From Escherichia phage SP27: 64,000 nucleotides of DNA. The notes under the pieces were generated by a model, which had not been told where the DNA came from, ran no database searches, and was given only the letters and a program-made list of their open reading frames with translations. The stretch lies in sequence record LC494302.1; one strand, 5' to 3'. Positions 16,076 through 58,767 of the stretch are shown one piece after another; the stretch's first letter is position 1; every line of letters starts with the position of its first letter. The translations under genes and the position numbers were made by a program.

Positions 16076-16755
16076 TGAAAAAGAAATTAAATGAACAAGG
16101 CTTACGTCCGCAAGTTCTCAAAGATTTGATTCATCCTATCATTAGTGTTGATGAATATACTCCTAAAATTGAAGATAGTAATATTGTTATTATGTTTCAG
16201 GTACTTAACAATTTTGATGCAGCATATGATTTATCTTCTTTTATTGAAAAATCACCTATTGATGTAGCTGATACAGAAGCAGCAGAAACACCAAATTTAG
16301 ATGGTCGATATCAAGTTTATGTTGAAATGGAACGAAATGCTGAATTCCCTGAAAAACTTTTACGTTTAATTAAAACTATTGAAAATATTTGTCCAGACCC
16401 AGGTTGGAAAATACAACTATATGGTGTTAATGACCCAATCGATGTTGATTTTGAAGAAATACAGCAGAGAATTGATTTGGGTATTCCTAGTTCAATTAGT
16501 GAGTTCCTTGATTATGCTGGTGTTTCAGTAATCAAAGAAGGAAACATGTTGACATTAAAAACAGCATATGGTAAATTACATTACAGTACTGGAAGCGGTT
16601 TTGTTTCAGAAACATATGTGAAAAAGTTATTAAAGAATGATACACAATTAGACACTTCGCGTCTTAGTTCCATACTAGGGGAAAGCTATACAGTACTACG
16701 AAGTGGTGATCAATATGTAATTGGAAGAAACGGGAAATATTTGGTGTTGCGATGA
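16075..16755 (+). CDS. hypothetical protein
   Basis: 226 aa ORF with ATGA overlap coupling. Confidence 0.5.
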   Translation: MKKKLNEQGLRPQVLKDLIHPIISVDEYTPKIEDSNIVIMFQVLNNFDAAYDLSSFIEKSPIDVADTEAAETPNLDGRYQVYVEMERNAEFPEKLLRLIKTIENICPDPGWKIQLYGVNDPIDVDFEEIQQRIDLGIPSSISEFLDYAGVSVIKEGNMLTLKTAYGKLHYSTGSGFVSETYVKKLLKNDTQLDTSRLSSILGESYTVLRSGDQYVIGRNGKYLVLR

Positions 16756-17570
16756 GAATTTTAAATATGCTTAAATCTCTTCACGAAACAACCAAATTAC
16801 ATCAGGATGAAAAGTATCGTCGCAGCCTTACTAAAGATTTAGCATGTCGTATGTATATGCGTAGATTTGAAATTTCAAGAATTGGTAAAGGCTGGGATGA
16901 TGTAAATCGTGAAGACATTGATCCAGATGCAATTTTTAAAGCATACATGGCTAGAAAAGTTTTCATAAATGAAAAAACTTTTTATATTGATAGTGATAGA
17001 GAATTAGAAAATAAATTTACAAAAGGTTTATGGAAGATATGGTGTGTTGAAGTATTCGGTGAAGTATTACCTGAGCCACCTGTTCCAGAAACTTATAAAG
17101 ATTTAAAAAGTATTTTTGATAATGAACATATACATTCAAATTTCTCATTATATGATACTGTGTCAGAAGCTGTATTTTATGGTGAGTTACATGGTCATAA
17201 CAAATACTTTGATAGTATGGTTAGTTTTGATTTGTTTTGTCACTTGCCTGGTGTATCAAGTTGGACATGTGACCAACACAGAGCAAGTAAGATTGATAAG
17301 CGAAAATTCTCGGCCCAAAGATTTATGCAAGTTGCTATGAGTATGTATAAACTTGATTATCTTGGTTGTCCAGAACCATATAAACATTTTTGGAAAGAAA
17401 GAGCACAAAAATGTTTAAACTATTGTATAATCCGTTTAATGGACACATACATTCTTAAGTTTAGAAATGCAACTGTATACGACATGCCTGAACCACCAAA
17501 GAATGAAAAATATCCACCTGTCAAGACATTTGTATGGTACAAGGATAAAAGTAACAAAAGGATGCACTAA
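16752..17570 (+). CDS. hypothetical protein
   Basis: 272 aa ORF; terminator hairpin overlaps its stop. Confidence 0.5.
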   Translation: MRILNMLKSLHETTKLHQDEKYRRSLTKDLACRMYMRRFEISRIGKGWDDVNREDIDPDAIFKAYMARKVFINEKTFYIDSDRELENKFTKGLWKIWCVEVFGEVLPEPPVPETYKDLKSIFDNEHIHSNFSLYDTVSEAVFYGELHGHNKYFDSMVSFDLFCHLPGVSSWTCDQHRASKIDKRKFSAQRFMQVAMSMYKLDYLGCPEPYKHFWKERAQKCLNYCIIRLMDTYILKFRNATVYDMPEPPKNEKYPPVKTFVWYKDKSNKRMH

Positions 17571-17586
17571 GGTGCGTCCTTTTTTC
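17560..17586 (+). terminator. rho-independent terminator
   Basis: ggatgcac taag gtgcgtcc plus ttttttc. Confidence 0.55.
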
Positions 17587-17596
17587 TTTTCAGGTG

Positions 17597-17625
17597 TTGA
17601 CATGTGTAGTCGAAGTATGTACAAT
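17597..17625 (+). promoter_or_regulatory. sigma70-like promoter (TTGACA-N17-TACAAT)
   Basis: ttgacatgtgtagtcgaagtatgtacaat. Confidence 0.5.
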
Positions 17626-17666
17626 ATCACCATAGCGTAAATTTTAATTGATTATGAGGTTTTATA

Positions 17667-18794
17667 ATGAAAGGTAAATATTTTTTCATTGAAAATGGCA
17701 AAGAAGTTGAGATTCAAGAATTTAACTATAATTATGTACTGAACTCTTTATTGAAACAATATGACCGTTCATCAAACAAAAAATACATTTACAATGTAAT
17801 TGTACGTCGCACCTATGACTCGCTGGGTAATCCGTTATTTGATGTAAAAACTCTGTCATTAGATGAAATCTATTTTGATAATAAACGTCTGAAAGTTCTT
17901 GATTTAATGAAGGATAAAATTCATTTTAGTAATATTAGAATTGATCCTAACATGCCAGTACCGCCATTAGAGCGTGAATATCGTGAATGGAAAGACGGTC
18001 GTGCCAAACCACGTTTAGACTTGGTACAAACATCACCAGATGTACCTGCACCTATTGTTCTTAAGAAAAAACCTATCAACCCAGACGATAGCAGAATTGA
18101 TGACATTGAAAGATGGGTTGAATTCCCTAGTACTATTGAAAAGAATTCAGTAAAAGTACTAGACTGGTTTGTAAACTTACCAGTTTGTGCACAAGAAATT
18201 GGAACTAAGATTCAACAAATTTCAGAACGTCAATTGGATCTTAACTCAGCATTACAACAGCATAGTGATTATATTAGAATGCTTATGAATAACCTTACTG
18301 TTGCGTTGGAGACGTTGTTCCCATTGAAGCCGACCTTTACACAGAAATTGTTTGGTAAAACTGATATCAAAGTGCAACCATCAGATTTGCCAAAAGTGAT
18401 GAAAGCACTAAATGAAGCAGTTAAGTATGACACTAATAAGTTTAGTGGTCTTAGTACGATGTTTTCAGAACTTAGAAACGAAGTTAATGAAATCAAAAAT
18501 GAACTTGAATATGGTAAGTTGGGTTGTGAATACGCACTACGTTGTGTGGATGATGCGTTTGAATATGAATTAACATTAGAACGTATTATGAAAATGGGAA
18601 TCACCACCTCCATGACTGAAACGAGCATTATTGCAACAAGTAAGCAATATCAAGTTGATATGAATCGTATGGTAGATATTCAAACTATTACTATTCCTTT
18701 GATTATCAATCGTTTACAATCACAGACAGGTAAAGCTGTGGATGAGAGTACTGTAGAAATTATTCGTAATCTGGCATATGGTAACAAAGAGTAA
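17667..18794 (+). CDS. hypothetical protein
   Basis: 375 aa ORF downstream of promoter 17597-17625. Confidence 0.5.
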   Translation: MKGKYFFIENGKEVEIQEFNYNYVLNSLLKQYDRSSNKKYIYNVIVRRTYDSLGNPLFDVKTLSLDEIYFDNKRLKVLDLMKDKIHFSNIRIDPNMPVPPLEREYREWKDGRAKPRLDLVQTSPDVPAPIVLKKKPINPDDSRIDDIERWVEFPSTIEKNSVKVLDWFVNLPVCAQEIGTKIQQISERQLDLNSALQQHSDYIRMLMNNLTVALETLFPLKPTFTQKLFGKTDIKVQPSDLPKVMKALNEAVKYDTNKFSGLSTMFSELRNEVNEIKNELEYGKLGCEYALRCVDDAFEYELTLERIMKMGITTSMTETSIIATSKQYQVDMNRMVDIQTITIPLIINRLQSQTGKAVDESTVEIIRNLAYGNKE

Positions 18795-18802
18795 AAAAAT
18801 AC

Positions 18803-18831
18803 TTGACTATCATACGTGCTGCCCGTATAAT
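18803..18831 (+). promoter_or_regulatory. sigma70-like promoter (TTGACT-N17-TATAAT)
   Basis: ttgactatcatacgtgctgcccgtataat. Confidence 0.55.
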
Positions 18832-18879
18832 GTTTATCACAGAGCAGCACATCATATTAAATTAAACGAGGAATACTAA

Positions 18880-20016
18880 ATGTCCGAGAAAGAAATCAAT
18901 CCTAAAAAAGCATCCACCGCAGCTAAATCAGCAAAACGCACTACTAAAACTGCGTCTAAAGGTCATACAATTGATGCAAGTGATATTTTTAACCAAACTA
19001 CAAAATCACTACCAGTACTGAAAGATGTTAAGGGAAATACTATGTCTCTAACAGTTCAAAACATCAATACTGTTGGTACAACTGCTGGTGCTGCTGTTGG
19101 GCGTTTGGCTGATGAAATTATGTCTAAAGTTAATGTAACGGATGACAATACCGAGTTTGGTAAATCAATCACCACAATTCTTACGTTGACTCGTGCAGTT
19201 GATATTGACAGTCTTCAAGAAGATAAATCAATTGTTGGTCGTATTAAGAAATTCTTTGTTAATGCTCAACAGAAAGTAGGTGATCAGTACAAAAACAGTA
19301 AAGAGCAAATTGACGAAATTATGAAAACTCTTCAAACTGGTATTAATCGCCAGCACGGAGAATGTGAATGGCTTGATAAAGCATATAATGAAAACAAAGA
19401 ATATTTGTTTGAATTACGTGATACATTAGTTGGTTTAGAAGAAGTAACTAAAACACAAGATGCATTATTATTAGAAATGCAAGCAGACAAAAATGTAGAC
19501 TCTTTTGCTATTCAAGAGCAAAAGATGATTTGTGAAGCACTTTCTAAACAAGAAGATAAGATTCGTCGTCTTATCATGATGTGCGAGCTAAGTGGTCCAC
19601 GTTTGATGAGTATGAAAAAGGTAAACTTGAACACTGTTTCTAAGTTTGAAGATTTAAAATCTGTTGTTATTCCAGCATGGAAGTCTCAATTGGCTGAACA
19701 GTTAATTTCCGAGCGTCAACGTAAGGATAATGAACTAGGCAATCTAATTGATAATGAGACAAACCGTCTTTTGGAAACTAACTCTAAAATGGTTGCAGCA
19801 AATATGTTGGACGCAGCAAAGGCAAACAACCGTGGTATTGTGGATATTAAAACCTTGCGTAATGTACATAAAACGATGATTGACAGTATTGAAGCAGTTA
19901 TTGAAGAAGAGAAAAAAGGCAAATTGGAACGTGAACGTGCTAAACAGGAAATTGCACAACTTTCCTATGAACTGGAAGACACTCTTCGTGAAATTGCCGA
20001 AAAAGCTAACAAGTAA
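18880..20016 (+). CDS. hypothetical protein (basic N-terminus, coiled-coil-like)
   Basis: 378 aa; N-terminal KKASTAAKSAKRTTKTASKG, Lys/Glu-rich C-terminus. Confidence 0.5.
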   Translation: MSEKEINPKKASTAAKSAKRTTKTASKGHTIDASDIFNQTTKSLPVLKDVKGNTMSLTVQNINTVGTTAGAAVGRLADEIMSKVNVTDDNTEFGKSITTILTLTRAVDIDSLQEDKSIVGRIKKFFVNAQQKVGDQYKNSKEQIDEIMKTLQTGINRQHGECEWLDKAYNENKEYLFELRDTLVGLEEVTKTQDALLLEMQADKNVDSFAIQEQKMICEALSKQEDKIRRLIMMCELSGPRLMSMKKVNLNTVSKFEDLKSVVIPAWKSQLAEQLISERQRKDNELGNLIDNETNRLLETNSKMVAANMLDAAKANNRGIVDIKTLRNVHKTMIDSIEAVIEEEKKGKLERERAKQEIAQLSYELEDTLREIAEKANK

Positions 20017-20019
20017 TAG

Positions 20020-20048
20020 TTGACATATGAGTGCGTTTTTAATATAAT
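20020..20048 (+). promoter_or_regulatory. sigma70-like promoter (TTGACA-N17-TATAAT), embedded in terminator hairpin
   Basis: ttgacatatgagtgcgtttttaatataat. Confidence 0.45.
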
Positions 20049-20071
20049 CTTATTGAAAACGCACTCTTTTT
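20029..20071 (+). terminator. terminator hairpin enclosing a promoter -10
   Basis: gagtgcgtttt...aaaacgcactc plus ttttt. Confidence 0.45.
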
Positions 20072-20095
20072 AATGTACAGATAAGGAACTAACTT

Positions 20096-20785
20096 ATGAA
20101 ACGTCGTCATATTAGTGTTGATATTGAAGCTCTTGGAACACCTGAACTTTCCGGTTATGATATTATTATCCCAAATTACGCAGCAGTAGTAGTTCCAAGT
20201 AAACCTGAAAATGACATTCGTCAGTTCTTATATATTAAATTACCATACCAGGATCAAGTTGCTACTGGTTTAAAATCAGACGCAGGTGCAATGGATTTTT
20301 GGATGAATACATGTCAGAAAGAATACCCTAATGCATATGCTGAAGTTGCCAGTACTATGAAACTCAAAGCACCTGAACTGTATGGACCGAATGGTCAATC
20401 ACGACGATTTTTTGCATACAGTAGTATTGTTGATTTCTGGAAAGAATTACGTTACAATGATTATGGTGAAGAAGTTCCTCATTCAGTCTGGGGTAACGGA
20501 TGTAACTTCGATTGTAGCATTTTACAAGCAAACCATTTAAAACTAATGAACGCTGGTGAGTTGTGGAAGTATGATGCACCTGAAAATGCACGCACATTGA
20601 AACGTTTATTGAATGAAGAAGCTCGTATTGAAATGGATGAAATCGTTTCGGTACAGTTGGATAAATTTATCACATATGCAAATACGTGTGGGATTAATGG
20701 GTTGGAGTTACATCATCCACTATTTGATGCAGCACGTGAAGCAATCCAGATTTCATTCTGTCTAAACAAGCTTAAAATGGATTAA
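20096..20785 (+). CDS. DEDDh-type 3'-5' exonuclease (T4 DexA-like)
   Basis: 229 aa; ISVDIEALG (Exo I D-x-E) near N-terminus and HHPLFDAAREA (H-x4-D) near C-terminus. Confidence 0.45.
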   Translation: MKRRHISVDIEALGTPELSGYDIIIPNYAAVVVPSKPENDIRQFLYIKLPYQDQVATGLKSDAGAMDFWMNTCQKEYPNAYAEVASTMKLKAPELYGPNGQSRRFFAYSSIVDFWKELRYNDYGEEVPHSVWGNGCNFDCSILQANHLKLMNAGELWKYDAPENARTLKRLLNEEARIEMDEIVSVQLDKFITYANTCGINGLELHHPLFDAAREAIQISFCLNKLKMD

Positions 20786-20788
20786 TAC

Positions 20789-21883
20789 ATGAATTTCATT
20801 ATTCTGTTAATACCTGCTCTTATCGTTGTATTCGTTATGAAATACATGTACGATAAGCATATCAGTACTAAAGAACTATTGATTCATATTGGTTGTTGTC
20901 TGGTTGGTGCGGCTCTTGTTCTTGGTATTTCATACGCAATCAACTATAGCCAGCTTTATGATGTTGAGATTCTGAATGGTCAAGTAACTTCAAAATACAG
21001 CCACAAAGAATATTGCACACAATCTAGTTCATGTAAGCACTATACATGGCATGAGAAGTGCCATACGCGATATGATAGTAAAGGTAAATCACATCGTGAG
21101 TGTGAATCATATAAGGTTTTTGATTACTCATATGAAGTTGATTGGTATGTGAAAAGTACAGTAGGTGAGTTTGAGATTGAACGTGTGAACCGTCAAGGTA
21201 CAATGACACCACCACGTTGGCAGCAAGTTATTATTGGTGACTATGCCGCAGCAGAGAGTTCATATATCAACTATCTATTTGCTGATAAGAACTCATTGTT
21301 TAGTCCTGAAGAACTACACAACATGTATGATGAAAAGTATCTTAGTACTATTCCAGAATACCCAAGTGTAGTTGATTATTACAAAACACATCACGTAATT
21401 AACACTACAAATTACAACGTTGATGGTTACGATGAATACCTTCGTAATGAGCTAAAAACGATGGGTGCACGAAAGCAGGTAAACATCCAAGTACTAGTTT
21501 ATGATTACAAAGATGTTGATTTTGTTGATGCTACCCTTGCATCGTGGCGTGGTGGTAAGAAGAATGATGTTATTATGTTCTTTGGTATTGACAATGATGG
21601 TAACGTTGTAAAATTTTACAGTACATCATTTGCACAAGGAATGAAGAATGAAGAGTTACATGCAAAGATGCGTATTGATGCATTAAATGAAAAATTAACT
21701 CTTGACTTACTAGTTAAAGAAGTACATAATATTGACAAACATTTTGAGAGACTCTCTAATAAAGAGTTTGAGTACTTGTCAGTAAAAATGGAACCTAGAA
21801 AAGATGTTCTTATCGGTGCTTCCATTGTGTTGTTGATTCTGTCTATTTTCATTGGCCTTTATATGAGGGATAACGATTTATGA
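20789..21883 (+). CDS. membrane protein (N- and C-terminal TM segments)
   Basis: 364 aa; hydrophobic stretches ILLIPALIVVFVM and IGASIVLLILSIFIGL. Confidence 0.5.
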   Translation: MNFIILLIPALIVVFVMKYMYDKHISTKELLIHIGCCLVGAALVLGISYAINYSQLYDVEILNGQVTSKYSHKEYCTQSSSCKHYTWHEKCHTRYDSKGKSHRECESYKVFDYSYEVDWYVKSTVGEFEIERVNRQGTMTPPRWQQVIIGDYAAAESSYINYLFADKNSLFSPEELHNMYDEKYLSTIPEYPSVVDYYKTHHVINTTNYNVDGYDEYLRNELKTMGARKQVNIQVLVYDYKDVDFVDATLASWRGGKKNDVIMFFGIDNDGNVVKFYSTSFAQGMKNEELHAKMRIDALNEKLTLDLLVKEVHNIDKHFERLSNKEFEYLSVKMEPRKDVLIGASIVLLILSIFIGLYMRDNDL

Positions 21884-22434
21884 ATGGTAAACTCCTTGCG
21901 TTAATTGGTATTTTGGTAGTTATCGTACTAATGGTGTTTGGTTCTATTAGTATGTATGTTGGTGCACATGATCGTGCAGTTGAGTTTGAAGGAAACATTA
22001 AAAAGTATTATGATGCATCAGAAAGTCAACTTAGCAATTATACTCTTACTATTCAAGATAAGGTTCAAGTAGCCGATAAGTATAAAGATGCGTTGAAAGA
22101 AACGATTGAATCATACTTTAAAGGGCGTGAAGGTGTTGACCAGAAGTTTGTAATGTCACAGATTCAACAACAGGTTCCAAATCTTGATCCTAAAATTTAT
22201 CAGGAATTGATGGTGACAATTGAAACAGGACGTACAAAGTTCAACAATCTTCAGAAAATGAAAATTGACCAGTGTACTGATTATGCTAAGTTCCGCAAAG
22301 GCTTCTGGAATTCCAAAATTCTTGATTCGAATACGTTTCCAAGTGAAAATATTGAACACCTTTGTACAGTAGTATCTGATACACGTACCAAGAAAGCAAT
22401 GGATACTGGTATTCAAGAATCAATTAAACTATAA
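21880..22434 (+). CDS. membrane-anchored protein
   Basis: 184 aa; N-terminal LLALIGILVVIVLMVFG TM helix. Confidence 0.5.
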   Translation: MNGKLLALIGILVVIVLMVFGSISMYVGAHDRAVEFEGNIKKYYDASESQLSNYTLTIQDKVQVADKYKDALKETIESYFKGREGVDQKFVMSQIQQQVPNLDPKIYQELMVTIETGRTKFNNLQKMKIDQCTDYAKFRKGFWNSKILDSNTFPSENIEHLCTVVSDTRTKKAMDTGIQESIKL

Positions 22435-22443
22435 TTAAATGTT

Positions 22444-22468
22444 GGGAGTACTTTGTACTCCCCCTTTT
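22444..22468 (+). terminator. rho-independent terminator
   Basis: gggagta...tactccc plus cctttt. Confidence 0.6.
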
Positions 22469-22482
22469 CTATGGGGTGTACT

Positions 22483-23070
22483 ATGTTTTTAAAAAATACT
22501 TATGAATTAATTAAAATGCTTCAAAATATGAATTCCGGTGGCTTGTTTCCCTATTACTCTGAGGATGAAACTCATCGTTTAGTCCTTAAATTGGATGAAA
22601 CTGGACGTATTATATCACTAAGAACAACAGTCCCCAGTGTAGAACCAGTAATTACCAAATCAACTCAAAATTCAGGAACTGCTGTTAAAACACCACAAAC
22701 ATACAACTCTAATTACCAACAACCACAAATGTACACGATTAGCACTCCACCTATTAAACGAGTTGCTTGTATTGTGAATATAAAAGTATCTAAGGACTAT
22801 CGCGACTTAATATCAGTTGAATGGTCAGAACTAACATCATCATTAGCAACAAATGGATTTGTAGTAACAAATACAGGTCTAGCACAAAATGTGAAAGAAG
22901 GACAACAGATCATGAGTGCATTGTATCTTAGTAATGGTTGTGTTATCATCAATGGTAAGTTGTATAGCGATGCCGACCCCACTGCATTCACTGAAGATTT
23001 GATTGGTGATAAAGAATACAGCATTCTTGAAATTATGAATTTGAAAAAGGTATATGAAAACCATGACTAG
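22483..23070 (+). CDS. hypothetical protein
   Basis: ORF; ATG at 22483 chosen because the upstream in-frame codons lie inside the terminator hairpin. Confidence 0.45.
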   Translation: MFLKNTYELIKMLQNMNSGGLFPYYSEDETHRLVLKLDETGRIISLRTTVPSVEPVITKSTQNSGTAVKTPQTYNSNYQQPQMYTISTPPIKRVACIVNIKVSKDYRDLISVEWSELTSSLATNGFVVTNTGLAQNVKEGQQIMSALYLSNGCVIINGKLYSDADPTAFTEDLIGDKEYSILEIMNLKKVYENHD

Positions 23071-23635
23071 ATTTCATCAAGATGATTTGCCATTTATACA
23101 AGAACTAGAAGAACTGGTGATAAGTATTATGGATGAAATTAGTACTTGGGATATAACAGTTTTTCGAAATGTATATGATAAAGTGGTGAATTTTAAAAAT
23201 GTTAATATTGAAGTAAAACATAATAATTTTTACTTAACAAAACAATTCATTCTAACTCGACCAGGATCAAAGCCAGTTAAACGTAATTTATCATTCGGAC
23301 ACCTGATTGGTGCAGAAAATGTACATGATGAATGGGTTGATTCAATCTATTCGTATACAAAAGAACTTATTCCTGATATTGAGAAAAAATATTATCTTAG
23401 TATCACATTAGATGAAAACGGTAATCTTAATGCATATTCAATAAATTCTTCTTCAAATGTTCCATTACATTCAGTGACGATTGGTGATAAAAAAATGCTA
23501 ATAAATTCTGAAACATGGTATAATAGAGAAAATTTCGCAGCAGAATCATTTCAGTACTCAGTATCTGAACCAAAGTCACCTTTTGATTTAGTGTTTGTTA
23601 ATAATATTATTTTACGTTTTGGTGTAGGAGTGTAA
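23054..23635 (+). CDS. hypothetical protein
   Basis: 193 aa ORF. Confidence 0.5.
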   Translation: MKTMTRFHQDDLPFIQELEELVISIMDEISTWDITVFRNVYDKVVNFKNVNIEVKHNNFYLTKQFILTRPGSKPVKRNLSFGHLIGAENVHDEWVDSIYSYTKELIPDIEKKYYLSITLDENGNLNAYSINSSSNVPLHSVTIGDKKMLINSETWYNRENFAAESFQYSVSEPKSPFDLVFVNNIILRFGVGV

Positions 23636-23638
23636 TTT

Positions 23639-23992
23639 ATGCTAATTTATTTAAGTGTTATTGTAATTTCATTACTGGTATCATTCGCTGTTCTTAAAAT
23701 TGTTGCTATTTGTAGAAGTAAGATTGATAGTTCTGAAACTAGTTCAGTACTTGACTTGATTATGGACCATCCTAAAATCTGTGGTATTATTGTATTATTC
23801 GTTGTACTGATTAATACATATATTGTCAGGGAACATTTATATAATATGTATGATTGTAGTGTGCGTTCTATTTCACAAGGTGTTGAAACAGACTATAGTT
23901 GGTACTATGAGAAATGTCGATTTAAAAACCAGCATGGTATTTGGGTTGATTTTGATAAACTACGTGGAACACCTTCAGGAGAAGAAGAATAA
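23639..23992 (+). CDS. membrane protein
   Basis: 117 aa with two hydrophobic helices. Confidence 0.45.
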   Translation: MLIYLSVIVISLLVSFAVLKIVAICRSKIDSSETSSVLDLIMDHPKICGIIVLFVVLINTYIVREHLYNMYDCSVRSISQGVETDYSWYYEKCRFKNQHGIWVDFDKLRGTPSGEEE

Positions 23993-23994
23993 TT

Positions 23995-24486
23995 ATGTTT
24001 GAATTCCCAGAAGAGTCATTTAACTTCATTGACCCTACTGATGATGGATACCGACATATTAACATTTATAGTAAAGCCAGAACGAAGTTAGGTAGAGATC
24101 TATCTAACTTTTCTTCGCATAGCTTCACACTTGAACCATATGGTTGGTTCCCTTCAGTTGAAACATTTTACTTTTGGTTTTTAACTGGGCAAAAACATGA
24201 TGACCTTAGAAAAGTATCTGGTGCAGCAGCAAAAGCAGCCGCTAACAAATATATGCATGATCGAATTGAAATGACGGATGATTGTATTTCTATTATTCAA
24301 GATGCTATTTGTGCTAAAATAATTCAAAATCCAGAGTTAGCCGAAAGATTAAGAAAAAGCAAGTTGCCTTTTTACCATTACTATGTATATGGTGGTAAAG
24401 TTGTAGATGTATCCGACGAACATGATTGGTTTGTTAAAACATTCGAATATATAAGAACTGTGTTAAAGGAAAACTATGATGGGTAA
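23995..24486 (+). CDS. hypothetical protein
   Basis: 163 aa ORF. Confidence 0.5.
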   Translation: MFEFPEESFNFIDPTDDGYRHINIYSKARTKLGRDLSNFSSHSFTLEPYGWFPSVETFYFWFLTGQKHDDLRKVSGAAAKAAANKYMHDRIEMTDDCISIIQDAICAKIIQNPELAERLRKSKLPFYHYYVYGGKVVDVSDEHDWFVKTFEYIRTVLKENYDG

Positions 24487-40177: not shown

Positions 40178-40513
<336 letters not shown>

Positions 40514-40514
40514 A

Positions 40515-40697
40515 ATGACACACGAAGAATGGATGTCCAAACAGCATAAAGAACATGACTGCTTTGGGAATGGCATTCGTCAGGTACATTATGATATATT
40601 AAGAGATGAAAATCTTTTCAGGTCATATGTTTTGGATACCAGAAAACCCTGGTTTATATGCGAACTGGCATTTAGAAAGTCAAATAATCAAAACTAA
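40515..40697 (+). CDS. MTHEEW mini-protein paralog 3
   Basis: MTHEEWMSKQHKEHDCFGNGIRQVHYDILRDENLFRSYVLDTRKPWFICELAFRK. Confidence 0.5.
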   Translation: MTHEEWMSKQHKEHDCFGNGIRQVHYDILRDENLFRSYVLDTRKPWFICELAFRKSNNQN

Positions 40698-40713
40698 ACA
40701 AGGAATACAAAAA

Positions 40714-40932
40714 ATGGAAACAACTTTATTTGAAGTTATTCAATCATTAAAACCTGAAGATGAGGTTCAAGTACTACTACATGGTTATCGTGTAAAAGGT
40801 ACTGTGGTTTTAGTCAATGATACAACATTGGTTATTACAGAAACAAACCCATATGATAGTAATCAACTTGCCAATATCCATATCGATATCACTGGAATTA
40901 TTGGTGTCGGTGTATCTAAAACACTTGCATAA
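40714..40932 (+). CDS. hypothetical protein
   Basis: Start placed at METTLFEV (40714) to avoid overlap with paralog 3. Confidence 0.4.
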   Translation: METTLFEVIQSLKPEDEVQVLLHGYRVKGTVVLVNDTTLVITETNPYDSNQLANIHIDITGIIGVGVSKTLA

Positions 40933-40985
40933 ATCATTAATTCATTATATAATGATTATCACTGGTTCTAGATGAGGATAATATT

Positions 40986-41258
40986 ATGCATTTTGAAAAA
41001 TTCAACGTAAATCGTAACACACGCATTGAAGTTCTTTATGAAACTCAAGACACCATTAGTATTCGTACAAGTAGTGGGGATGTATATCATGACTGTACGA
41101 TTGGCTGGGAACAGGGAAGAACGCGTAGTGCAGTATTTGATAATTATCGCTTTTATCAAGGAGACACTACGATTTGGCCTGAATACGTAGAAGATATTGC
41201 GTTTGAAGATGAACATAAAGATGAATTTATCAAATTTAATCCTCAAACTGAATCATAA
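40986..41258 (+). CDS. hypothetical protein
   Basis: 90 aa ORF. Confidence 0.45.
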   Translation: MHFEKFNVNRNTRIEVLYETQDTISIRTSSGDVYHDCTIGWEQGRTRSAVFDNYRFYQGDTTIWPEYVEDIAFEDEHKDEFIKFNPQTES

Positions 41259-41275
41259 ATAATGGGACATCACAT

Positions 41276-41388
<113 letters not shown>

Positions 41389-41395
41389 CCAAAAT

Positions 41396-41497
<102 letters not shown>

Positions 41498-41502
41498 AAA
41501 CC

Positions 41503-41663
41503 ATGACGCATGAAGAATGGATGAATGACATTAATTTTAGATATGCAGGTTTCGGTAACTGGAGAAAGTATCATTGGGAAATCATGTCAGACCCAGCAGA
41601 ATACGATAAACTTATAAACCATGAAGCGTATCCGTGGTTCTTTATTGAAATAATGGTACGAAC

Positions 41664-41667
<4 letters not shown>
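41503..41667 (+). CDS. MTHEEW mini-protein paralog 4 (54 aa)
   Basis: MTHEEWMNDINFRYAGFGNWRKYHWEIMSDPAEYDKL...; below the ORF-track cutoff. Confidence 0.45.
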
Positions 41668-41829
<162 letters not shown>

Positions 41830-41837
41830 AAAAAAAG

Positions 41838-42251
<414 letters not shown>

Positions 42252-42308
42252 CTAAATAATTCAGTACTGAGGATATTAATATGTTTAAAGATGAACGTCC
42301 AGATTTGT

Positions 42309-42346
<38 letters not shown>

Positions 42347-42421
42347 GAATTCCACAATCAGACGTATATGGTGTAAGTTACGTCGATGCAATCCAGAACA
42401 AGATCTCTGGTACTCTAGGAA

Positions 42422-42631
42422 GTGGTGAATGTTAACCTAGACGGGTTTGATAATTGGACGATAGGCAATTATTACTTGACTAGCAGGTTGAAACTAGAGG
42501 TGACAGTCCTTCACCAAACTGGAAAACCGGATGGACTTTTATTTAAAAGGGTAAGGCGTGGAAATATGTTTACAGAAGTTGCTTTTAGTAGCCTGTACGC
42601 CCCACGTCAAGGTAGCCGAAAGGCAAGTTAA
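42422..42631 (+). CDS. hypothetical 69-aa ORF (alternatively part of a non-coding RNA)
   Basis: ORF lies in an unusually GC-rich segment between promoter 42318-42346 and terminator 42636-42692; coding status uncertain. Confidence 0.3.
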   Translation: MVNVNLDGFDNWTIGNYYLTSRLKLEVTVLHQTGKPDGLLFKRVRRGNMFTEVAFSSLYAPRQGSRKAS

Positions 42632-42635
42632 AACG

Positions 42636-42692
42636 GATGGTTATAAAGCTGAATTAACAGCGGCGTTTAAAAGCGTCACCATCCATTTTTTT
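42636..42692 (+). terminator. terminator-like long hairpin
   Basis: ggatggt...accatcc (7 bp closing a 35-nt interior) followed by attttttt. Confidence 0.4.
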
Positions 42693-42708
42693 AATTAAAG
42701 TTGGTGAT

Positions 42709-43473
<765 letters not shown>

Positions 43474-43488
43474 TTCACATGATATAGG

Positions 43489-44161
<673 letters not shown>

Positions 44162-44180
44162 AGAGGTACTTCGAGTATGC

Positions 44181-44304
<124 letters not shown>

Positions 44305-44307
44305 ATA

Positions 44308-44394
<87 letters not shown>

Positions 44395-44449
44395 GACTGC
44401 CAAACAGCTTGAAGTACTTTGTAGTGCTGCACCTATGCCGACACTTGGC

Positions 44450-44550
<101 letters not shown>

Positions 44551-44562
44551 TATCTTACTTCT

Positions 44563-44652
<90 letters not shown>

Positions 44653-49930: not shown

Positions 49931-49942
49931 TTAGATAAAATT

Positions 49943-49972
49943 AAAGCCACTACAATGTAGTGGCTTTTTTTA
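49943..49972. terminator. bidirectional terminator between convergent genes
   Basis: aaagccacta caatg tagtggcttttttt; A-run on one side, T-run on the other. Confidence 0.6.
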
Positions 49973-51127
49973 TTATGCGTTGTAACCAACTATTACGACT
50001 GAGCAGTCAAGCGGTTCTACTACTTTAAGAATTACATTATCATCTTCATCCACTTGTATTTCACTATGAACTACATGATTGTCTGAAGAATATAATTGAA
50101 CTTGTGGTAGTGCTTTACCATGTTCAGTTACTGGAACTGAGATAGAGTACATAGAGTCTTCACCGAGAACCCACTCACTTAAAGTATATTCTTTATGGAA
50201 AGGAGTAGTATGCAGTGTTTTTCCGATTATACTCAAAGAAACAGGTAAATTATCAGTTTGATACACAGTAATATTACCTTCTGCGTCTACAGAAAGATCT
50301 ACACCAACTTGATATAAGTCACCACTGTATGCTTGAAGTGCTAAGTACTGTCCACGATCATGAACATCAAATGGAACAACCGCAGAAAATACACCTTCCG
50401 AAACAGGTTCAAATTGGGATAGAAGAACTGATGTAACAAAATCAATATCCTCACCACTTTCAAGAACATCAAATTCCACCACTTTAGTGTTATAATATGG
50501 AGAAGTGAGCGTAGCAGTACCTTTCCCTGATTGTGTGATAACATCAACTGGAATTGTAAATGCATCATTAACAAATTGGGTAGTAAAGTATTCTGTCCCG
50601 TCTGGTAATACGATTGTTATTACCATACCGTTAGTATCAATTTCTGAACCAGTGTTGAATAATTTACCACTAATTGAGTCATTACCAACAAATACTGGTG
50701 AAATGAGAATATTATCTATATCACGATCTATAATACCACATTCAGGTGTATACATATGATACAAGGTTTGTGAACTACCTAAAATTGTTTTATGTAGCAT
50801 AAATTTATATACAAATCCAGTATCAGTTTCTTGTGGCTCTTCAGAATATCCACGAACAAAGAAACAATTTTTATTAATTTCACTTAATAGTTGGTCATTA
50901 GTTTTATTGTAATTTAATATATAACCTTTATTATCTTTAGTTGTTATTTGTACTTTACGATATATTATATTAGTTCTTGGATCAACTAAATCATATAATC
51001 TATGGCTTCTTTGGCGATAGATTCTAATATTTTTTAGTCTAGTTCCATCGTTGAGGATTGCACCATCAACAACATAACCACATTCACCAAACTTATAGCG
51101 TCCAGCCGCAGCAATTGACCTTGACAT
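49973..51127 (-). CDS. hypothetical protein (384 aa); only minus-strand gene in the window
   Basis: Long minus-strand ORF converging on a bidirectional terminator at 49943-49972; rich in Thr/Ser/Val/Gly, beta-rich-looking. Confidence 0.55.
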   Translation of the reverse strand: MSRSIAAAGRYKFGECGYVVDGAILNDGTRLKNIRIYRQRSHRLYDLVDPRTNIIYRKVQITTKDNKGYILNYNKTNDQLLSEINKNCFFVRGYSEEPQETDTGFVYKFMLHKTILGSSQTLYHMYTPECGIIDRDIDNILISPVFVGNDSISGKLFNTGSEIDTNGMVITIVLPDGTEYFTTQFVNDAFTIPVDVITQSGKGTATLTSPYYNTKVVEFDVLESGEDIDFVTSVLLSQFEPVSEGVFSAVVPFDVHDRGQYLALQAYSGDLYQVGVDLSVDAEGNITVYQTDNLPVSLSIIGKTLHTTPFHKEYTLSEWVLGEDSMYSISVPVTEHGKALPQVQLYSSDNHVVHSEIQVDEDDNVILKVVEPLDCSVVIVGYNA

Positions 51128-51187
51128 TTATCCCTCCATTGGTATAATTATTATAACGTATTTATTATGCATATCCAAAAAATGAGC

Positions 51188-51216
51188 TTGACTGGTGTAT
51201 GATTTGGTGTTATCAT
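51188..51216 (+). promoter_or_regulatory. sigma70-like promoter (TTGACT-N17-TATCAT)
   Basis: ttgactggtgtatgatttggtgttatcat. Confidence 0.4.
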
Positions 51217-51243
51217 GTAGTGAATGAATAATGAGGTGTTTTT

Positions 51244-55404: not shown

Positions 55405-55902
55405 ATGACAACTGTTTATATTGATAAACGATTAAATTTATTGATTACCGATTCTAGAGTTACGTCAACTATACCACGAAACTTATTTGGTTTTTTCCCA
55501 CTAAGACCAAAATATCAATATGGAGTTGTTAATCAAAAAACTTTATATGTACATGACCGTTTATTCAGTGCTAGTGGGGTAGTAAGTGAAATTGATAAAG
55601 TACTGGATTGGTTAATTAATAAAGTACCAGTTATACCTGACAGAAAGTTAAGTTGCCATTGTGTGCTTCTTTCTAAAGATTATGTTATTCATATGATTTT
55701 AACTAAAGGAAAGTTTATTAAAAAACTTGAATATCTACATGAAGACTACACTTTCTTTATGGGAAGTGGTGGAGAATACATGCTAGATGCTGCTATTCAT
55801 GAAGAACATACAACTTTATATGATAAAGTGTTTAGTACTTTCATGGATGTGCACAACCATGATTGCTTCACAGATGATAATATTAATGTATATCGATTTT
55901 GA
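55405..55902 (+). CDS. hypothetical protein
   Basis: 165 aa ORF. Confidence 0.45.
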   Translation: MTTVYIDKRLNLLITDSRVTSTIPRNLFGFFPLRPKYQYGVVNQKTLYVHDRLFSASGVVSEIDKVLDWLINKVPVIPDRKLSCHCVLLSKDYVIHMILTKGKFIKKLEYLHEDYTFFMGSGGEYMLDAAIHEEHTTLYDKVFSTFMDVHNHDCFTDDNINVYRF

Positions 55903-55923
55903 TTTCGTCATTAGGAGATGTAA

Positions 55924-56889
55924 GTGAAAAAGCTTGATTTAAATACAATTGCCGAAGAAGTTCTGGATGAATGTTTTGCTAATGAAGAAGTCAACACACT
56001 AGAAGCCTTAGATTTCGTTGAAGATAAAGATGATAATGAAGGTAAAGTACAAAGCAGTTTCAAATATAATATTACACTTAAGCGACCACCAAATGTTTCC
56101 AATGAAGATCTAATTCGTGATATTCAAGCTGGTATCAATGTAAAGAAAAACACTGAACTGTTAGTTCGTTACAATTATGGACTGATTATTGATGTAGCAA
56201 GTAAATGTACTTGTTATATCCCATTTGAAGATAAGATTTCATATGGTGTTGAGGGGTTCATGAGAGCACTAAAAACCTTTGATCTTAATAAGAATGTTAA
56301 GTTCATTACCTATGCTTCTTCTAGTATTTACATGACAGTCTATAACGAAAGTTCTGACGCTAACTATATGGTACACTTCCCACGTTATATGAGTGTTCAT
56401 AAGATCAAAGTAAAAAGATTCTGCCAGGAATATATGCGTAAACATGGTGTTCGCCCAACACCTGAAATAATCTCAGAGGGTACTGGGATTGAGATTCAGC
56501 ATGTTAATAATTGTTTATTATTTCAAAGCGAATACACTTCACTGGATGCACCATTAGACGGTGTTACAGATGGTACATTAGGTGACATTATTCATTCACC
56601 TGCTTCTGATTTTAACCTCAATGTTGATAGTATCCGTGCACCTTTACGTTATGCTATCAATGAACTGACTAACGAATTGAGTACTAAAGAACGTGAGATT
56701 ATCCAGCGTGTTCATGGTCTAGGTGAATATGAACCTGAAACGCTTCGTGAGATTGCTGATAATGGTTTTGTTGATGATAATGGAAAATATGTTAAATCCC
56801 GTTCATCAATACACCGAAAGTACAGTGAAGCTATGCAAAAGCTTAAGAAGTTAGTACTTGCAAAAGGGTACGAATACGAAGATTTCTAA
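55924..56889 (+). CDS. sigma-70 family RNA polymerase sigma factor
   Basis: GTG start after AGGAGA RBS; region-2-like LLVRYNYGLIIDVASK...GVEGFMRALKTFD...FITYASSSIY and region-4-like HTH LSTKEREIIQRVHGLGEYEPETLREIADNGF...IHRKYSEAMQKLKKL. Confidence 0.6.
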   Translation: MKKLDLNTIAEEVLDECFANEEVNTLEALDFVEDKDDNEGKVQSSFKYNITLKRPPNVSNEDLIRDIQAGINVKKNTELLVRYNYGLIIDVASKCTCYIPFEDKISYGVEGFMRALKTFDLNKNVKFITYASSSIYMTVYNESSDANYMVHFPRYMSVHKIKVKRFCQEYMRKHGVRPTPEIISEGTGIEIQHVNNCLLFQSEYTSLDAPLDGVTDGTLGDIIHSPASDFNLNVDSIRAPLRYAINELTNELSTKEREIIQRVHGLGEYEPETLREIADNGFVDDNGKYVKSRSSIHRKYSEAMQKLKKLVLAKGYEYEDF

Positions 56890-56896
56890 AGAACAA

Positions 56897-56923
56897 GGGT
56901 TGGCTTATGCCAACCTTTTTTTT
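56897..56923 (+). terminator. rho-independent terminator after the sigma factor gene
   Basis: gggttggc ttat gccaacc plus tttttttt. Confidence 0.65.
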
Positions 56924-56943
56924 ATGGGATGAAGTAAAAGTTT

Positions 56944-56952
56944 GTGATATAA
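56944..56952 (+). promoter_or_regulatory. extended -10 promoter element reading into an ORF-free segment
   Basis: tgtgatataat immediately after terminator 56897-56923. Confidence 0.35.
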
Positions 56953-57447
56953 TTATCTTGTACAATTCTGTTGGCATGATATTCATGTACCTGATCCACT
57001 CGAAAACGTAGAGGGCAGTTGAGCAGTCCGACAGTGCGAACAGCAAAAGAAACCCGTTAGATGTGGGCATAGTTTGAACCCCTCACGGCAATGCGGCTGT
57101 ATAAAGAACCACGTTAGGATAGCTGGTGGTTCCTTGATAGACATATAAGGATAACACCTTACGAATTATCTAAGGGAGAGTTATCGAATTTTGTACAGGA
57201 AAGTTGCGTCCAAAATTTGAGTACTCACATTAAGTATTTGATTGCATAGATACTTAATGAAGATACACTATGTTTAAAAGTGTAGACCGTCATATGAAAC
57301 TGAAGTAGAGAGAAACAGGATGACCCGCTTTCGCACTCGTTATGAGTAATCTTCAATGCAATAGCTCTGATACCATCAGCGTCAAATTTCCCTCCTTGTG
57401 GGGGGAAGAAAAATCCCTTCCTCAAATCCCGTCAATATTAAAAGTCC

Positions 57448-57476
57448 TTGACAGTTATTAATCATTCGCGTAGAAT
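57448..57476 (+). promoter_or_regulatory. sigma70-like promoter (TTGACA-N17-TAGAAT)
   Basis: ttgacagttattaatcattcgcgtagaat. Confidence 0.45.
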
Positions 57477-57540
57477 ACGTAGTATTAGAAGCGAACAGAC
57501 ATCTCGAAGAGATGGATGATTAACCATTAAGGAATATCAA

Positions 57541-57750
57541 ATGAATTCAGTAATCTTTTTAGTAGTCGCTTTCTCTGTTAATTCCGGTGTACAAATAACC
57601 CCAATGAATTCCATGAATCAATGCATAGCAGTACGTGATAGTACATACGAACAAGTAAACAAAGATATTTGGATTACAGTTAGTAAAGAACAAATGTGGT
57701 GTTACAATAGTAATACTAACACAAAGCTTATTGTAGGACAAACTCAATGA
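57541..57750 (+). CDS. small secreted/membrane protein
   Basis: N-terminal MNSVIFLVVAFSVNSG signal-like. Confidence 0.4.
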   Translation: MNSVIFLVVAFSVNSGVQITPMNSMNQCIAVRDSTYEQVNKDIWITVSKEQMWCYNSNTNTKLIVGQTQ

Positions 57751-57977
57751 GTTATGGCGTTCGTTTTGAGATTCGTTCTATTGTCATCAATGCAGAGAAA
57801 CAAGTATCGTTGGATGGTGATATACGTGAAATTTATCTATCATGTATCCGTGCGAAATCTGAAGCAGATGCCTTAGTACAAATGTATAGTTTTAACTTTT
57901 CAAATGGATTCTATTTGGTACGAGTTATTGAAGTGAAAAAAGTACTTATTGGTTGTAGCATAGAAGGATTAATGTAA
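57747..57977 (+). CDS. hypothetical protein
   Basis: 76 aa ORF. Confidence 0.4.
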   Translation: MSYGVRFEIRSIVINAEKQVSLDGDIREIYLSCIRAKSEADALVQMYSFNFSNGFYLVRVIEVKKVLIGCSIEGLM

Positions 57978-57978
57978 A

Positions 57979-58767
57979 ATGAGCACTATAGATGAACTGA
58001 TTCGACGGAATTCAAAATATTACCAACCATCAGAAATTGTAGGTAACATTACCAAATCAGAGTTTGGTCCAAATACTCGAAAACTCATTCATGTAATGTC
58101 ACGTGATGGCTTTAAATGTGATTGTTGCGGTGAATCTAATGTAGTATTCACTTTACACAAGCACAGTACTAAAGATCGTTATAAATTCAGACCTTATGTA
58201 CTTAAAGGGAAACGCCTTGTACGCATGACGTTAGACCATAATGTACTGGACTGTCTTCAGGGCGGTAATGATAAAGAGAACATGACTGCACTGTGTGAAG
58301 ATTGTAACGCATTACGCCAGCATAAGTTTGCTGAATACAGTGAGTTTAAACACTGGTATCATAACGCGGATCGTTCAATCGAGCCTGACGTTAACTACTG
58401 CTTCATTGAGTACATTAAGAATGCCAAAGATACATACATTCTTAAATCAATGTCACCTATTACCGTGTTTCCTGAGAACCTATTCACTACATTAAAGAAT
58501 AGTTTTATTGTAGGTGATATTGATGCATTCAAGTATTTTGACAAAGGTGCAAAACATTTTGAAATTCAATGTCTTAGTACTGCACTATGTGAACTCATTA
58601 AAATTTACATAAAAGAGTATTTGGGTATTGACAATGTACGTGTACCAGAGTATACTTTTTCTATTGAATTCGATTGTGAATCAATCAAAGAGTTTGGAAT
58701 TCTTTTCAATAAACAAATAGAACTTGCAATTCAAAACGAAATCAAGTACTATACTACTAACATTTAA
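57979..58767 (+). CDS. HNH endonuclease (free-standing, homing-endonuclease-like)
   Basis: CDCCGES...HKH...RMTLDHNVLDCLQGGNDKENMTALCEDCNALRQHKF: CxxC / DH-N / CxxC spacing typical of the HNH beta-beta-alpha-metal fold. Confidence 0.55.
   Translation: MSTIDELIRRNSKYYQPSEIVGNITKSEFGPNTRKLIHVMSRDGFKCDCCGESNVVFTLHKHSTKDRYKFRPYVLKGKRLVRMTLDHNVLDCLQGGNDKENMTALCEDCNALRQHKFAEYSEFKHWYHNADRSIEPDVNYCFIEYIKNAKDTYILKSMSPITVFPENLFTTLKNSFIVGDIDAFKYFDKGAKHFEIQCLSTALCELIKIYIKEYLGIDNVRVPEYTFSIEFDCESIKEFGILFNKQIELAIQNEIKYYTTNI

Follow-up and report, generated by a model that had tools for sequence, protein, structure and literature searches.

A 64-kb stretch of the genome of Escherichia phage SP27 (sequence record LC494302.1; hereafter the window, i.e. 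the whole 64,000 nucleotides (nt) analysed) contains, directly downstream of a sigma-factor gene, a segment of about 500 bp without an open reading frame (ORF) on the plus strand. An earlier note on this DNA had proposed that the segment is either a structured RNA or the remnant of an endonuclease-associated mobile insertion. Our comparative analysis indicates that it is almost certainly a structured RNA gene of an undescribed family: the first of the two proposals gained support from compensatory substitutions in approximately 17 helices, including four pseudoknots, and from a conserved promoter sequence belonging to the RNA itself.

The 656 bp around the segment are 100% identical (blastn, phage records) to Escherichia phage vB_Eco_slurp01 and 98.6-100% identical to phages 121Q, PBECO4, phAPEC6, Sharanji and their relatives. 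Judged by these matches, the window is of the Asteriusvirus jumbo phage type (121Q/slurp01), with genomes of about 350 kb. The predicted RNA gene and the features that delimit it are as follows.

55924-56889 (+): ORF encoding a sigma-70 family protein (Pfam Sigma70_r2, Sigma70_r3 and Sigma70_r4)
56895-56926 (+): intrinsic terminator of the sigma-factor gene, a 10-bp stem (56895-56918) followed by a T run; upstream boundary, outside the RNA
56925-56930 (+): upstream promoter box TGGGAT at the -35 position; family consensus TG(A/G)AAC, 17 bp before the -10 element
56945-56953 (+): extended -10 element TGATATAAT (TGnTATAAT), part of TGTGATATAAT at 56943-56953
56960-57434 (+): predicted RNA gene, its start placed about 7 nt past the -10 element; about 424 nt to the end of helix P16 and about 475 nt with P17 and the tail
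57448-57476 (+): promoter of the next unit, TTGACA-17-TAGAAT, matching at 11 of 12 positions; downstream boundary, outside the RNA
57541 (+): start of the next ORF, served by the preceding promoter and a ribosome-binding site

The interval 56890-57540 (651 bp) is the largest plus-strand gap in the window without an ORF of at least 45 amino acids (aa), and it holds only overlapping short ORFs of 34 and 39 aa on the plus strand and of 25-75 aa on the minus strand. Its G+C content reaches 0.43-0.45 at 56900-57200, as compared with 0.23-0.38 in the flanks. The earlier note had thus described the locus well, reporting some 500 bp free of plus-strand ORFs and richer in G+C than its surroundings, the sigma-gene terminator (as 56897-56923) and the next promoter at its exact position; the extended -10 element that it placed at 56944-56952 is real, with an error of 1 nt. 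The next-largest plus-strand gaps by the same ORF cutoff, 49931-50504 (574 bp) and 50760-51243 (484 bp), probably hold minus-strand genes.

Fold of the RNA and its comparative support

The fold was derived by a column-pair scan combined with inspection of alignments, and the pairs were then counted on independent MAFFT alignments of 40 copies, no two of which share 96% identity or more, and, for the 3' core, on a covariance-model alignment of 77 distinct copies. In the 5' half (40 copies), 84.9% of the cells at paired positions could pair, as compared with 33-39% in slid controls, and the covariation value was 0.400 against at most 0.09. The corresponding values for the 3' half (40 copies) were 82.4% against 41-48%, and 0.425 against at most 0.13; those for the 3' core (77 copies) were 96.5% against 33-44%, and 0.643 against at most 0.12, with 36 of 44 pairs changed on both sides. 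For each alignment, covariation as high was found in 0 of 500 shuffles. Since the pseudoknots PK2 and P12 had been left out of the covariance model, the alignment was not fitted to them and their counts are unbiased. As covariation cannot separate intramolecular from intermolecular pairing, all of the pseudoknots described here are to be read with either meaning.

The plus strand was identified as the RNA strand on the basis of (i) the excess of G.U over A.C at paired positions (303 versus 158 cells), (ii) the C/U variation opposite an invariant G run in P17 and (iii) the shared direction of the promoter and the terminators. Profile and covariance-model matches span 56956-57436; the covariance model of the 3' domain (R1) matches the window at 57227-57387 with 124.7 bits (E ~2e-28). 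The whole fold, based on alignments of 40-77 distinct homologues, comprises about 17 helices, four of the pairings being pseudoknots, and about 60 nucleotides of its junctions and loops are invariant. This combination of invariant unpaired nucleotides with four pseudoknots argues for a precise three-dimensional structure.

The 5' domain (56968-57178, P1-P8), together with P9, contains the elements listed below; AUAAAGAA is among its invariant junctions.

56968-57037 (+): 5' pseudoknot region, P1-P4
56968-56974/57028-57034 (+): P1, pseudoknot of CUGUUGG with CCGACAG in the loop of P4
56975-56979/56983-56987 (+): P2, variable
56996-57001/57011-57015 (+): P3, with the conserved loop GAAAAYGUA; 86% paired, 5 of 5 pairs changed on both sides
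57023-57025/57035-57037 (+): P4 hairpin, 100% paired
57040-57044/57096-57100 (+): P5, 100% paired, 4 of 5 pairs covarying
within 57040-57100 (+): conserved internal loop AAAAGAAAC/CAAUGCG between P5 and P6
57054-57057/57085-57088 (+): P6, 100% paired
57065-57067/57079-57081 (+): P6a, variable cap with the conserved loop CAUAGUUUGAA
57106-57112/57126-57132 (+): P7 hairpin, 94-100% paired, 7 of 7 pairs covarying
57117-57121/57167-57171 (+): PK7, pairing of the P7 loop; 85% paired, 4 of 5 pairs changed on both sides
57136-57150 (+): invariant junction GAUAGACAUAUAAGG
57146-57150/57157-57161 (+): P8, 96% paired
57171-57178 (+): invariant unpaired UAAGGGAG, resembling a Shine-Dalgarno sequence, yet with no start codon after it
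57178-57181/57223-57226 (+): P9, enclosing an optional hairpin module with a loop like UNUACAAnAnAG

On the MAFFT alignment P1 shows 74% pairing, and 6 of its 7 pairs have changed on both sides; at locus L057 it extends to 8 bp (CUGAUUGA/UCAAUCAG). Some copies cap P6 directly with a UUCG loop (L020). The partner strand of PK7 is J8/9. Within the Shine-Dalgarno-like element, TAAGGG is invariant in 40 of 40 aligned copies and the next A is present in 39 of 40, the final G being less conserved. A pairing of the RNase P P4 type between GAAAAYG and ACCCGCUUUCG was considered and rejected, as it shows no covariation, and CUUUC instead has a local partner in P14.

The region of P9 was aligned poorly by MAFFT (47% paired), and the column-pair scan gave four of four covarying pairs. 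The module that P9 encloses (57182-57222 in the window) is single in most copies, duplicated in some and missing from others; its loop UNUACAAUAUAG is conserved, with AUCCGUC or UUGCGUC as the 3' strand. Where it is duplicated, the second site lies inside P15, as in D-type and prophage-type copies (e.g. L013, L047 and L079, positions 3950-3985). By this pattern, the module appears to behave like a movable sub-domain. Formation of a kissing dimer through the palindrome UUGUACAA of the module loop was also rejected, because the palindrome is not conserved (UUUUACAA and AUUACA occur as variants).

The 3' domain, including P16, covers 57228-57383 (P10-P16) and is followed by a G-run hairpin and a tail.

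57228-57362 (+): 3' core, P10-P15 (77 distinct copies, covariance-model alignment)
57228-57237/57250-57259 (+): P10, 98.4% paired
57241-57247/57356-57362 (+): PK2, AUUGCAU of the P10 loop with AUGCAAU; 99.6% paired, 7 of 7 pairs covarying
57264-57268/57280-57284 (+): P11
57289-57293/57320-57324 (+): P12, pseudoknot of GUCAU with AUGAC in the P14 loop; 100% paired
57301-57305/57351-57355 (+): P13, 98.9% paired
57308-57312/57328-57332 (+): P14, 100% paired
57335-57338/57344-57347 (+): P15, 90.7% paired
57369-57383 (+): P16 hairpin, GAUAC CAUCA GCGUC, with a conserved YAUCA loop; 81% paired
57387-57408 (+): P17 hairpin, UUUCCCUCC-UUGU-GGGGGGAAG, with the invariant G run GGGGGGA; 77% paired
57423-57434 (+): near-invariant tail CAAAUCCCGUCA, family consensus CAAAUCYCGUCA, followed by A/T-rich sequence

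P13, P14 and P15 form a three-way junction, the partner strand of PK2 lies 3' of P13, and the register of P16 shifts by 1 nt between subfamilies. The sequences of PK2 are specific to the paralogues: AUUGCAU in type A, UCAUAU in type B, AUUGUAU in type C and AUCGAAU in type D. The P17 hairpin, which the earlier note had located at about 57392-57411, is present in every homologue; it varies almost solely by C or U opposite G, and this tolerance of G.U pairs argues for selection of the pairing at the level of the plus-strand RNA. In one whole genome the P17 G run was found only with the four RNA copies. An alternative terminator/antiterminator pairing with P14 was rejected, since the terminator sequences are not conserved.

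Copies of the RNA gene in phages and bacteria

A blastn search of 50,697 phage records found the segment in 61-70 of them. Thirty-three close relatives keep it at 87-100% identity, and a core of about 430 nt (approximately 56990-57440 of the window) is preserved at about 70% identity across genera of Rak2-like jumbo phages, which infect Serratia, Erwinia, Cronobacter, Pectobacterium, Yersinia, Klebsiella and Salmonella, as well as in two "Xanthomonas" phages. About 140 loci with a copy were added by pattern scans of IMG/VR (two scans), metagenomes and GTDB genomes (one scan each); L027, L035, L036, L045, L055, L060 and about 17 metagenome loci were discarded as chance pattern matches.

The RNA gene occurs at three to five separate places per jumbo-phage genome. 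In the complete genome of phage ECO103 4-12-1, four copies, 70-85% identical to each other and all on the same strand, lie at 18.5, 128.6, 208.4 and 261.8 kb, a number confirmed by the covariance model; a fifth match to the tail, at 185.8 kb, is a chance match in a coding sequence. The copy of ECO103 corresponding to that of the window is better conserved in its core (99.4% identity) than in the region 55900-57719 (97.0%). No second copy was found within the 64-kb window by blastn, nhmmer or model R1. In all 11 jumbo-phage contigs from IMG/VR (11/11), the copies within a contig are co-oriented.

Each orthologous position has different flanking genes, and no constant partner protein was found, the flanking ORFs clustering by orthologous locus only. 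A C-type copy is antisense to both of its neighbours, encoding endonuclease VII and a baseplate hub protein (7t3, L004). Yersinia and Serratia phages, too, encode sigma-factor homologues, 1.6-4 kb upstream of an RNA copy; this looser synteny implies that the position of the RNA is old. With an identity of about 70% and synteny that extends across genera, the paralogues reflect ancient duplication, not recent mobility. In several genera, a Dam-type N6-adenine methyltransferase is encoded about 0.7 kb downstream of B-type copies (second ORF; L014, L018 and L066), and an ADP-ribosylglycohydrolase within about 0.2 kb downstream of D-type copies (L040 and L053). Both are typical counter-defence functions.

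In GenBank records of the locus (e.g. OR699282.2, PP886230.1, PQ330092.1, MK773491.1 243795-244288 and ON568341.1 80759-80916) it is left blank, labelled "repeat_region" or covered by three to five short coding sequences for "hypothetical proteins"; in the record of phage UE-S1 the 5' part of the RNA is the "repeat_region". The hypothetical proteins annotated across the RNA are probably over-annotations of a non-coding gene, and in several records the present finding corrects three to five of them.

Six true copies were identified in bacterial assemblies by the genome scan. They are carried by Buttiauxella, Silvania, Citrobacter amalonaticus, Enterobacter chinensis, an Enterobacteriaceae strain and a 2.8-kb contig binned as Clostridium. 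At five of these sites, an island boundary is marked by a fall in G+C content from 50-59% to 29-42%; the 2.8-kb contig is not long enough for such a comparison. The gene order in Citrobacter and Enterobacter is hofB/ppdD-like chromosomal genes, a large serine recombinase gene, the RNA, a small ORF and a convergent gene for a CI-like repressor. At ten loci, in bacterial chromosomes and metagenome contigs alike, the RNA comes immediately after the gene for this large serine recombinase, on the border of an AT-rich element inserted beside hofB/ppdD-like genes. The loci with the serine recombinase, the RNA and the CI-like repressor are:

L079, 1845-5730
L084, 1522-5118
L097, L118, L123, L127, L140, L149, L161 and L078

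The proteins common to the integrated elements are membrane-like, have no assigned function and no homologue in the jumbo phages. Prophage-type copies are nearest to the copy of one metagenomic jumbo phage (L019/L128), with which they share, by inspection, the promoter region, the sequence of the P10-loop pseudoknot and the second optional module; this closeness suggests transfer between element types.

Among 5,426 complete E. coli genomes, two carry a copy, which is unannotated. In E. coli EEC_W5 it lies in a roughly 10-kb island flanked by ffs and ybaA (L174 9997-20341, equivalent to NZ_CM130020.1 241200-251544; RNA at 14001-14583). The island also contains a tyrosine integrase gene split by IS3 and the candidate defence system PDC-M45, represented there by dual-OB and DUF488 proteins and adjoining a DUF4326 protein. 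No copy was matched in plasmids.

Transcription, possible role and rival explanations

Upstream of 43 non-redundant copies the consensus nnTGnAAC...TGnTATAAT was found, with TG at -15/-14 in 41 of the 43 and TATAAT likewise in 41 of the 43. The same motif has been described as a "divergent RpoD-like" promoter class in phages CBB and GAP32 (PMC5259590). We infer promoter activity at TGrAAC-N17-TGnTATAAT; the TGrAAC box may be recognised either by sigma-70 of the host or by the phage's own sigma factor, whose gene immediately precedes it. RNA polymerase would start about 7 nt after the extended -10 element (at ~56960), and in many paralogues the transcript would end at a terminator 3' of P16, such an intrinsic terminator being located between P16 and P17 in 19 of 40 aligned copies. 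For the window copy, which lacks this terminator and whose tail is separated from the next promoter by 13 nt, the 3' end would arise by processing or read-through. In B-type copies (L014, L018, L025, L032, L033, L050, L056, L066 and L068) a strong hairpin with a U run is situated within 60 nt after the -10 element, 5' of P1. It looks like the terminator of the upstream gene, judging by its form; because it stands between the promoter and P1, the transcripts of the RNA gene itself would need to read through it.

In the mechanism that we propose, a discrete sense transcript of about 0.42-0.52 kb would act in trans by virtue of its three-dimensional shape, whether as part of a ribonucleoprotein, as a ribozyme or as a self-assembling scaffold, to the benefit of the mobile element in infection or lysogeny. 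That lytic, temperate and island elements all carry the gene speaks for a self-sufficient module. Several old co-oriented copies in each giant genome, together with single copies in prophages and a defence-type island, suggest a portable functional module made of RNA only. A role in phage-host or phage-phage conflict is plausible; it is weakly hinted at by the neighbouring Dam methylase, ADP-ribosylglycohydrolase and PDC-M45. That the segment encodes an independently transcribed, folded, large non-coding RNA of an undescribed family, which acts in trans and is neither a leader, an intron nor a DNA scar, is in its entirety a statement that we hold to be slightly more probable than its negation. 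A further proposal is that this is an undescribed class of large RNA, either a new ribozyme or an RNA forming a higher-order particle via its paralogue-specific pairings, with specialised copies in giant phages, which temperate elements and defence islands would have borrowed to serve as a weapon or counter-weapon made of RNA only in phage-host conflict; this we regard as a rather unlikely, speculative scenario.

Several observations weigh against a trans-acting RNA of this kind. Co-oriented, evenly dispersed copies are not predicted by a diffusible RNA. The use of the promoter and the ends of the RNA are deduced from sequence for all copies, and in the window copy no terminator separates the RNA from the promoter at 57448-57476, so that no 3' end is marked in its sequence. 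Conservation of P17 and the tail extends to copies in which they lie 3' of a terminator, and an RNA acting in trans and ending at the P16 terminator leaves this conservation unexplained. Single-sequence folding is not exceptional (z = -1.3 for the plus strand and -1.6 for the minus strand); thus, the case for the fold rests on the comparative data. Finally, the link to defence and anti-defence genes is guilt by association only.

Two of these difficulties would be accommodated by a replication origin primed by a structured transcript of about 450 nt, similar to ColE1 RNA II or to the R-loop origins oriF and oriG of phage T4, in which the folded RNA would favour a lasting RNA-DNA hybrid close to the G-run hairpin, the tail and the A/T-rich region, and so prime DNA synthesis. 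Each unit is autonomous and unlinked to the neighbouring genes; a 350-kb genome has three to five of them, co-oriented and spread as in ECO103 4-12-1, and the far smaller integrative elements hold one. P17 and the tail are conserved past the terminator and followed by A/T-rich DNA, as an origin would have it, but half of the copies contain canonical terminators between the RNA body and the G-run element, and the G.U tolerance of P17 indicates selection on RNA, not on DNA. Four covarying pseudoknots and dozens of invariant junction nucleotides far exceed the needs of known primer transcripts, neither iterons nor initiator-binding repeats are present, and the cumulative GC skew has no inflection at the site; we therefore consider an origin improbable. 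We are similarly sceptical of a cis-acting leader, which would either alter the polymerase transcribing it (processive antitermination, as with the put sites of HK022) or control read-through into downstream genes as a giant riboswitch. The next genes are on the same strand for the window copy and for B-, D- and E-type copies, a terminator just 3' of the folded body gives many copies an aptamer-plus-terminator layout, and a terminator is missing between the window copy and the downstream unit. That unit, however, has a strong promoter of its own, C-type copies face the convergent endonuclease VII and baseplate hub genes of the other strand, and the prophage copies have a single small ORF and next the convergent repressor gene downstream. 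The downstream genes differ at every locus, and the terminator sequences vary freely, with no conserved alternative pairing to the body seen by inspection. A riboswitch class was rejected: the downstream genes do not form a constant, related set, no more than 19 of 40 copies have terminators, and inspection showed no conserved pairing that would compete with the body.

The second proposal of the earlier note, the remnant of an endonuclease-associated mobile insertion (treated here together with a group I or group II intron), drew on a free-standing HNH endonuclease gene some 550 bp downstream. A 262-aa ORF (57979-58767) indeed starts 532 nt after 57447; its product had no match in Pfam or PADLOC, and can be called HNH-like solely from a CxxC...DH...N...CxxCN pattern seen by eye. 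The ORF belongs to a cassette of 1,039 bp (57720-58758), comprising the end of a 69-aa ORF, a 76-aa ORF and the HNH-like ORF, which in the otherwise 96-97% identical ECO103 4-12-1 is replaced by about 86 bp, while the RNA is kept at 97-99%. The HNH-like gene is therefore the mobile part, independent of the RNA, and such presence or absence of a cassette is what a free-standing homing endonuclease shows. Some other RNA copies (L039, L148 and L016) have a gene for a weak homologue of the 262-aa protein within a few kb.

A phage genome with such an ORF 0.5 kb downstream, HNH-like homologues within a few kb of some other copies and a pseudoknotted fold are what an intron or remnant has in its favour. 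Comparison with the related phages nevertheless revealed that the RNA segment is no indel: it is retained in 33 of 33 close relatives, and the indel is the HNH cassette. For this reason, and since the paralogues, far from near-identical, are only about 70% alike and keep their synteny across genera, a mobile-element scar or miniature inverted-repeat transposable element was rejected, although no search was aimed at terminal repeats. No gene is split, as the sigma-factor ORF stops at 56889 and is followed by its terminator, ORF 57541 has its own promoter and ribosome-binding site, and the RNA has a promoter too. No Rfam intron model matched the 11 divergent copies even at E values of 5-10; the group I model in particular gave no match at its gathering score or at E <=10 in the window, nor at E <=5 in the 10 other copies. 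The topology also differs from the group I P3/P7 pseudoknot formed around P4-P6, because P12 crosses P13 and P14 and only 7 nt separate P12 from P13, leaving no P4-P6-like domain between them. A group II intron was rejected for lack of an Rfam match and of any ORF longer than 85 aa inside any copy. The intron or scar explanation is hence effectively excluded, and the same is true, with even less doubt, of unannotated small protein genes. Minus-strand ORFs of 53-75 aa exist in the window and several GenBank records annotate ORFs across the region, but the longest internal ORFs of the homologues (24-85 aa) are conserved neither in length nor in position, the substitutions compensate in helices and lack codon periodicity, and indels are located at hairpin tips.

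Comparison with known RNAs

The Rfam comparison suggested in the earlier note was negative: no family of Rfam 15, including group I and II introns, RNase P, transfer-messenger RNA (tmRNA), GOLLD, ROOL, HEARO and OLE, matched the RNA body in the window copy or in 10 divergent copies, even at E values of 5-10. The only hits at gathering or relaxed thresholds were terminator-like small RNA models outside the RNA body. ARAGORN detected neither a tmRNA nor a transfer RNA (tRNA) in the RNA region, and no tmRNA in the whole window. The window has a cluster of six tRNA genes at 40200-44642, one of which was called as tRNA-Ser with the unusual anticodon ACT (43128-43219); a weak extra Rfam tRNA match at 41396-41474 (29.3 bits, threshold 29) has no ARAGORN call. 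What we take to be a local resemblance to the J11/12 sequence of RNase P serves as a lead only.

No published description of this RNA was found in a literature search that was thin on subscription journals, so an earlier account is possible. The genome papers on phages UE-S1, CBB and Sharanji do not mention the RNA, and a jumbo-phage review of June 2026 refers to non-coding RNAs only for phiKZ (PMC13282480). We conclude that the RNA very probably belongs to no described family; the claim of newness covers the family, not the function.

Large, intricately folded RNAs of bacteria and phages are rare (ribosomal RNA, RNase P, tmRNA, group I and II introns, OLE, GOLLD, ROOL and HEARO), and each of them revealed new biochemistry. 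The present RNA is tractable, because the carrier phages 121Q, PBECO4, phAPEC6 and Sharanji grow on E. coli K-12 and O157.

With the group I introns of T4-like phages the RNA shares the phage setting, a pseudoknotted structure and a nearby homing-endonuclease-like gene. It differs from them in its location outside any gene, its own promoter, the lack of a match to RF00028 and its topology, and the endonuclease-like gene here lies outside the RNA and varies independently of it. ColE1 RNA II and the T4 oriF/oriG transcripts are likewise promoter-driven, non-coding, folded transcripts of about 0.5 kb, forming autonomous units of which a large genome may have several; unlike the RNA described here, they have no pseudoknots and no extensive invariant junctions.

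Among jumbo phages, Pseudomonas phage PA5oct, a distant relative of the Rak2/121Q group, expresses putative long non-coding RNAs (ncRNA001-004) found by RNA sequencing, of which ncRNA002 (451 nt) is free of ORFs and accounts for about 5% of the phage reads (PMC7318152). This abundance shows that such phages do express RNAs of this size. The PA5oct region 7000-24000, which covers ncRNA001 and ncRNA002, gave no match with nhmmer profiles or model R1, and these two RNAs (MK797984.1 8263-8498 and 21951-22401; L054) are unrelated to the present family.

The closest likeness in kind is to GOLLD and ROOL, and it is one of kind only, not of homology. All three are encoded by stand-alone genes of phages and prophages, measure about 400-800 nt, combine many helices and pseudoknots with invariant nucleotides in their junctions, and have neither an obligatory protein partner gene nor an assigned function. 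Their long-range covarying pairings are equally possible between molecules, and cryo-electron microscopy shows that GOLLD and ROOL form RNA-only multimers (PMC12286853). In contrast to them, the present RNA is found in mobile elements of Enterobacterales (theirs belong to Lactobacillales, rumen or lake bacteria), matches no Rfam model in 11 copies, is not placed beside tRNA genes (the nearest tRNA of the window ends at 44642, about 12 kb away) and has three to five diverged paralogues per genome. The pRNA of phage phi29 is another phage-encoded structured RNA, whose covarying loop-loop pairing proved to be intermolecular and to build a ring. It is shorter (~120-174 nt), single-copy, tied to the phi29 packaging motor and not homologous, whereas the RNA of this study occurs also in islands without packaging genes. 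By analogy with pRNA, PK2 and PK7 could be intermolecular. The sequences of PK2 are paralogue-specific and covariation is blind to the number of molecules, so an assembly of the ROOL, GOLLD or pRNA kind is compatible with the fold described here.

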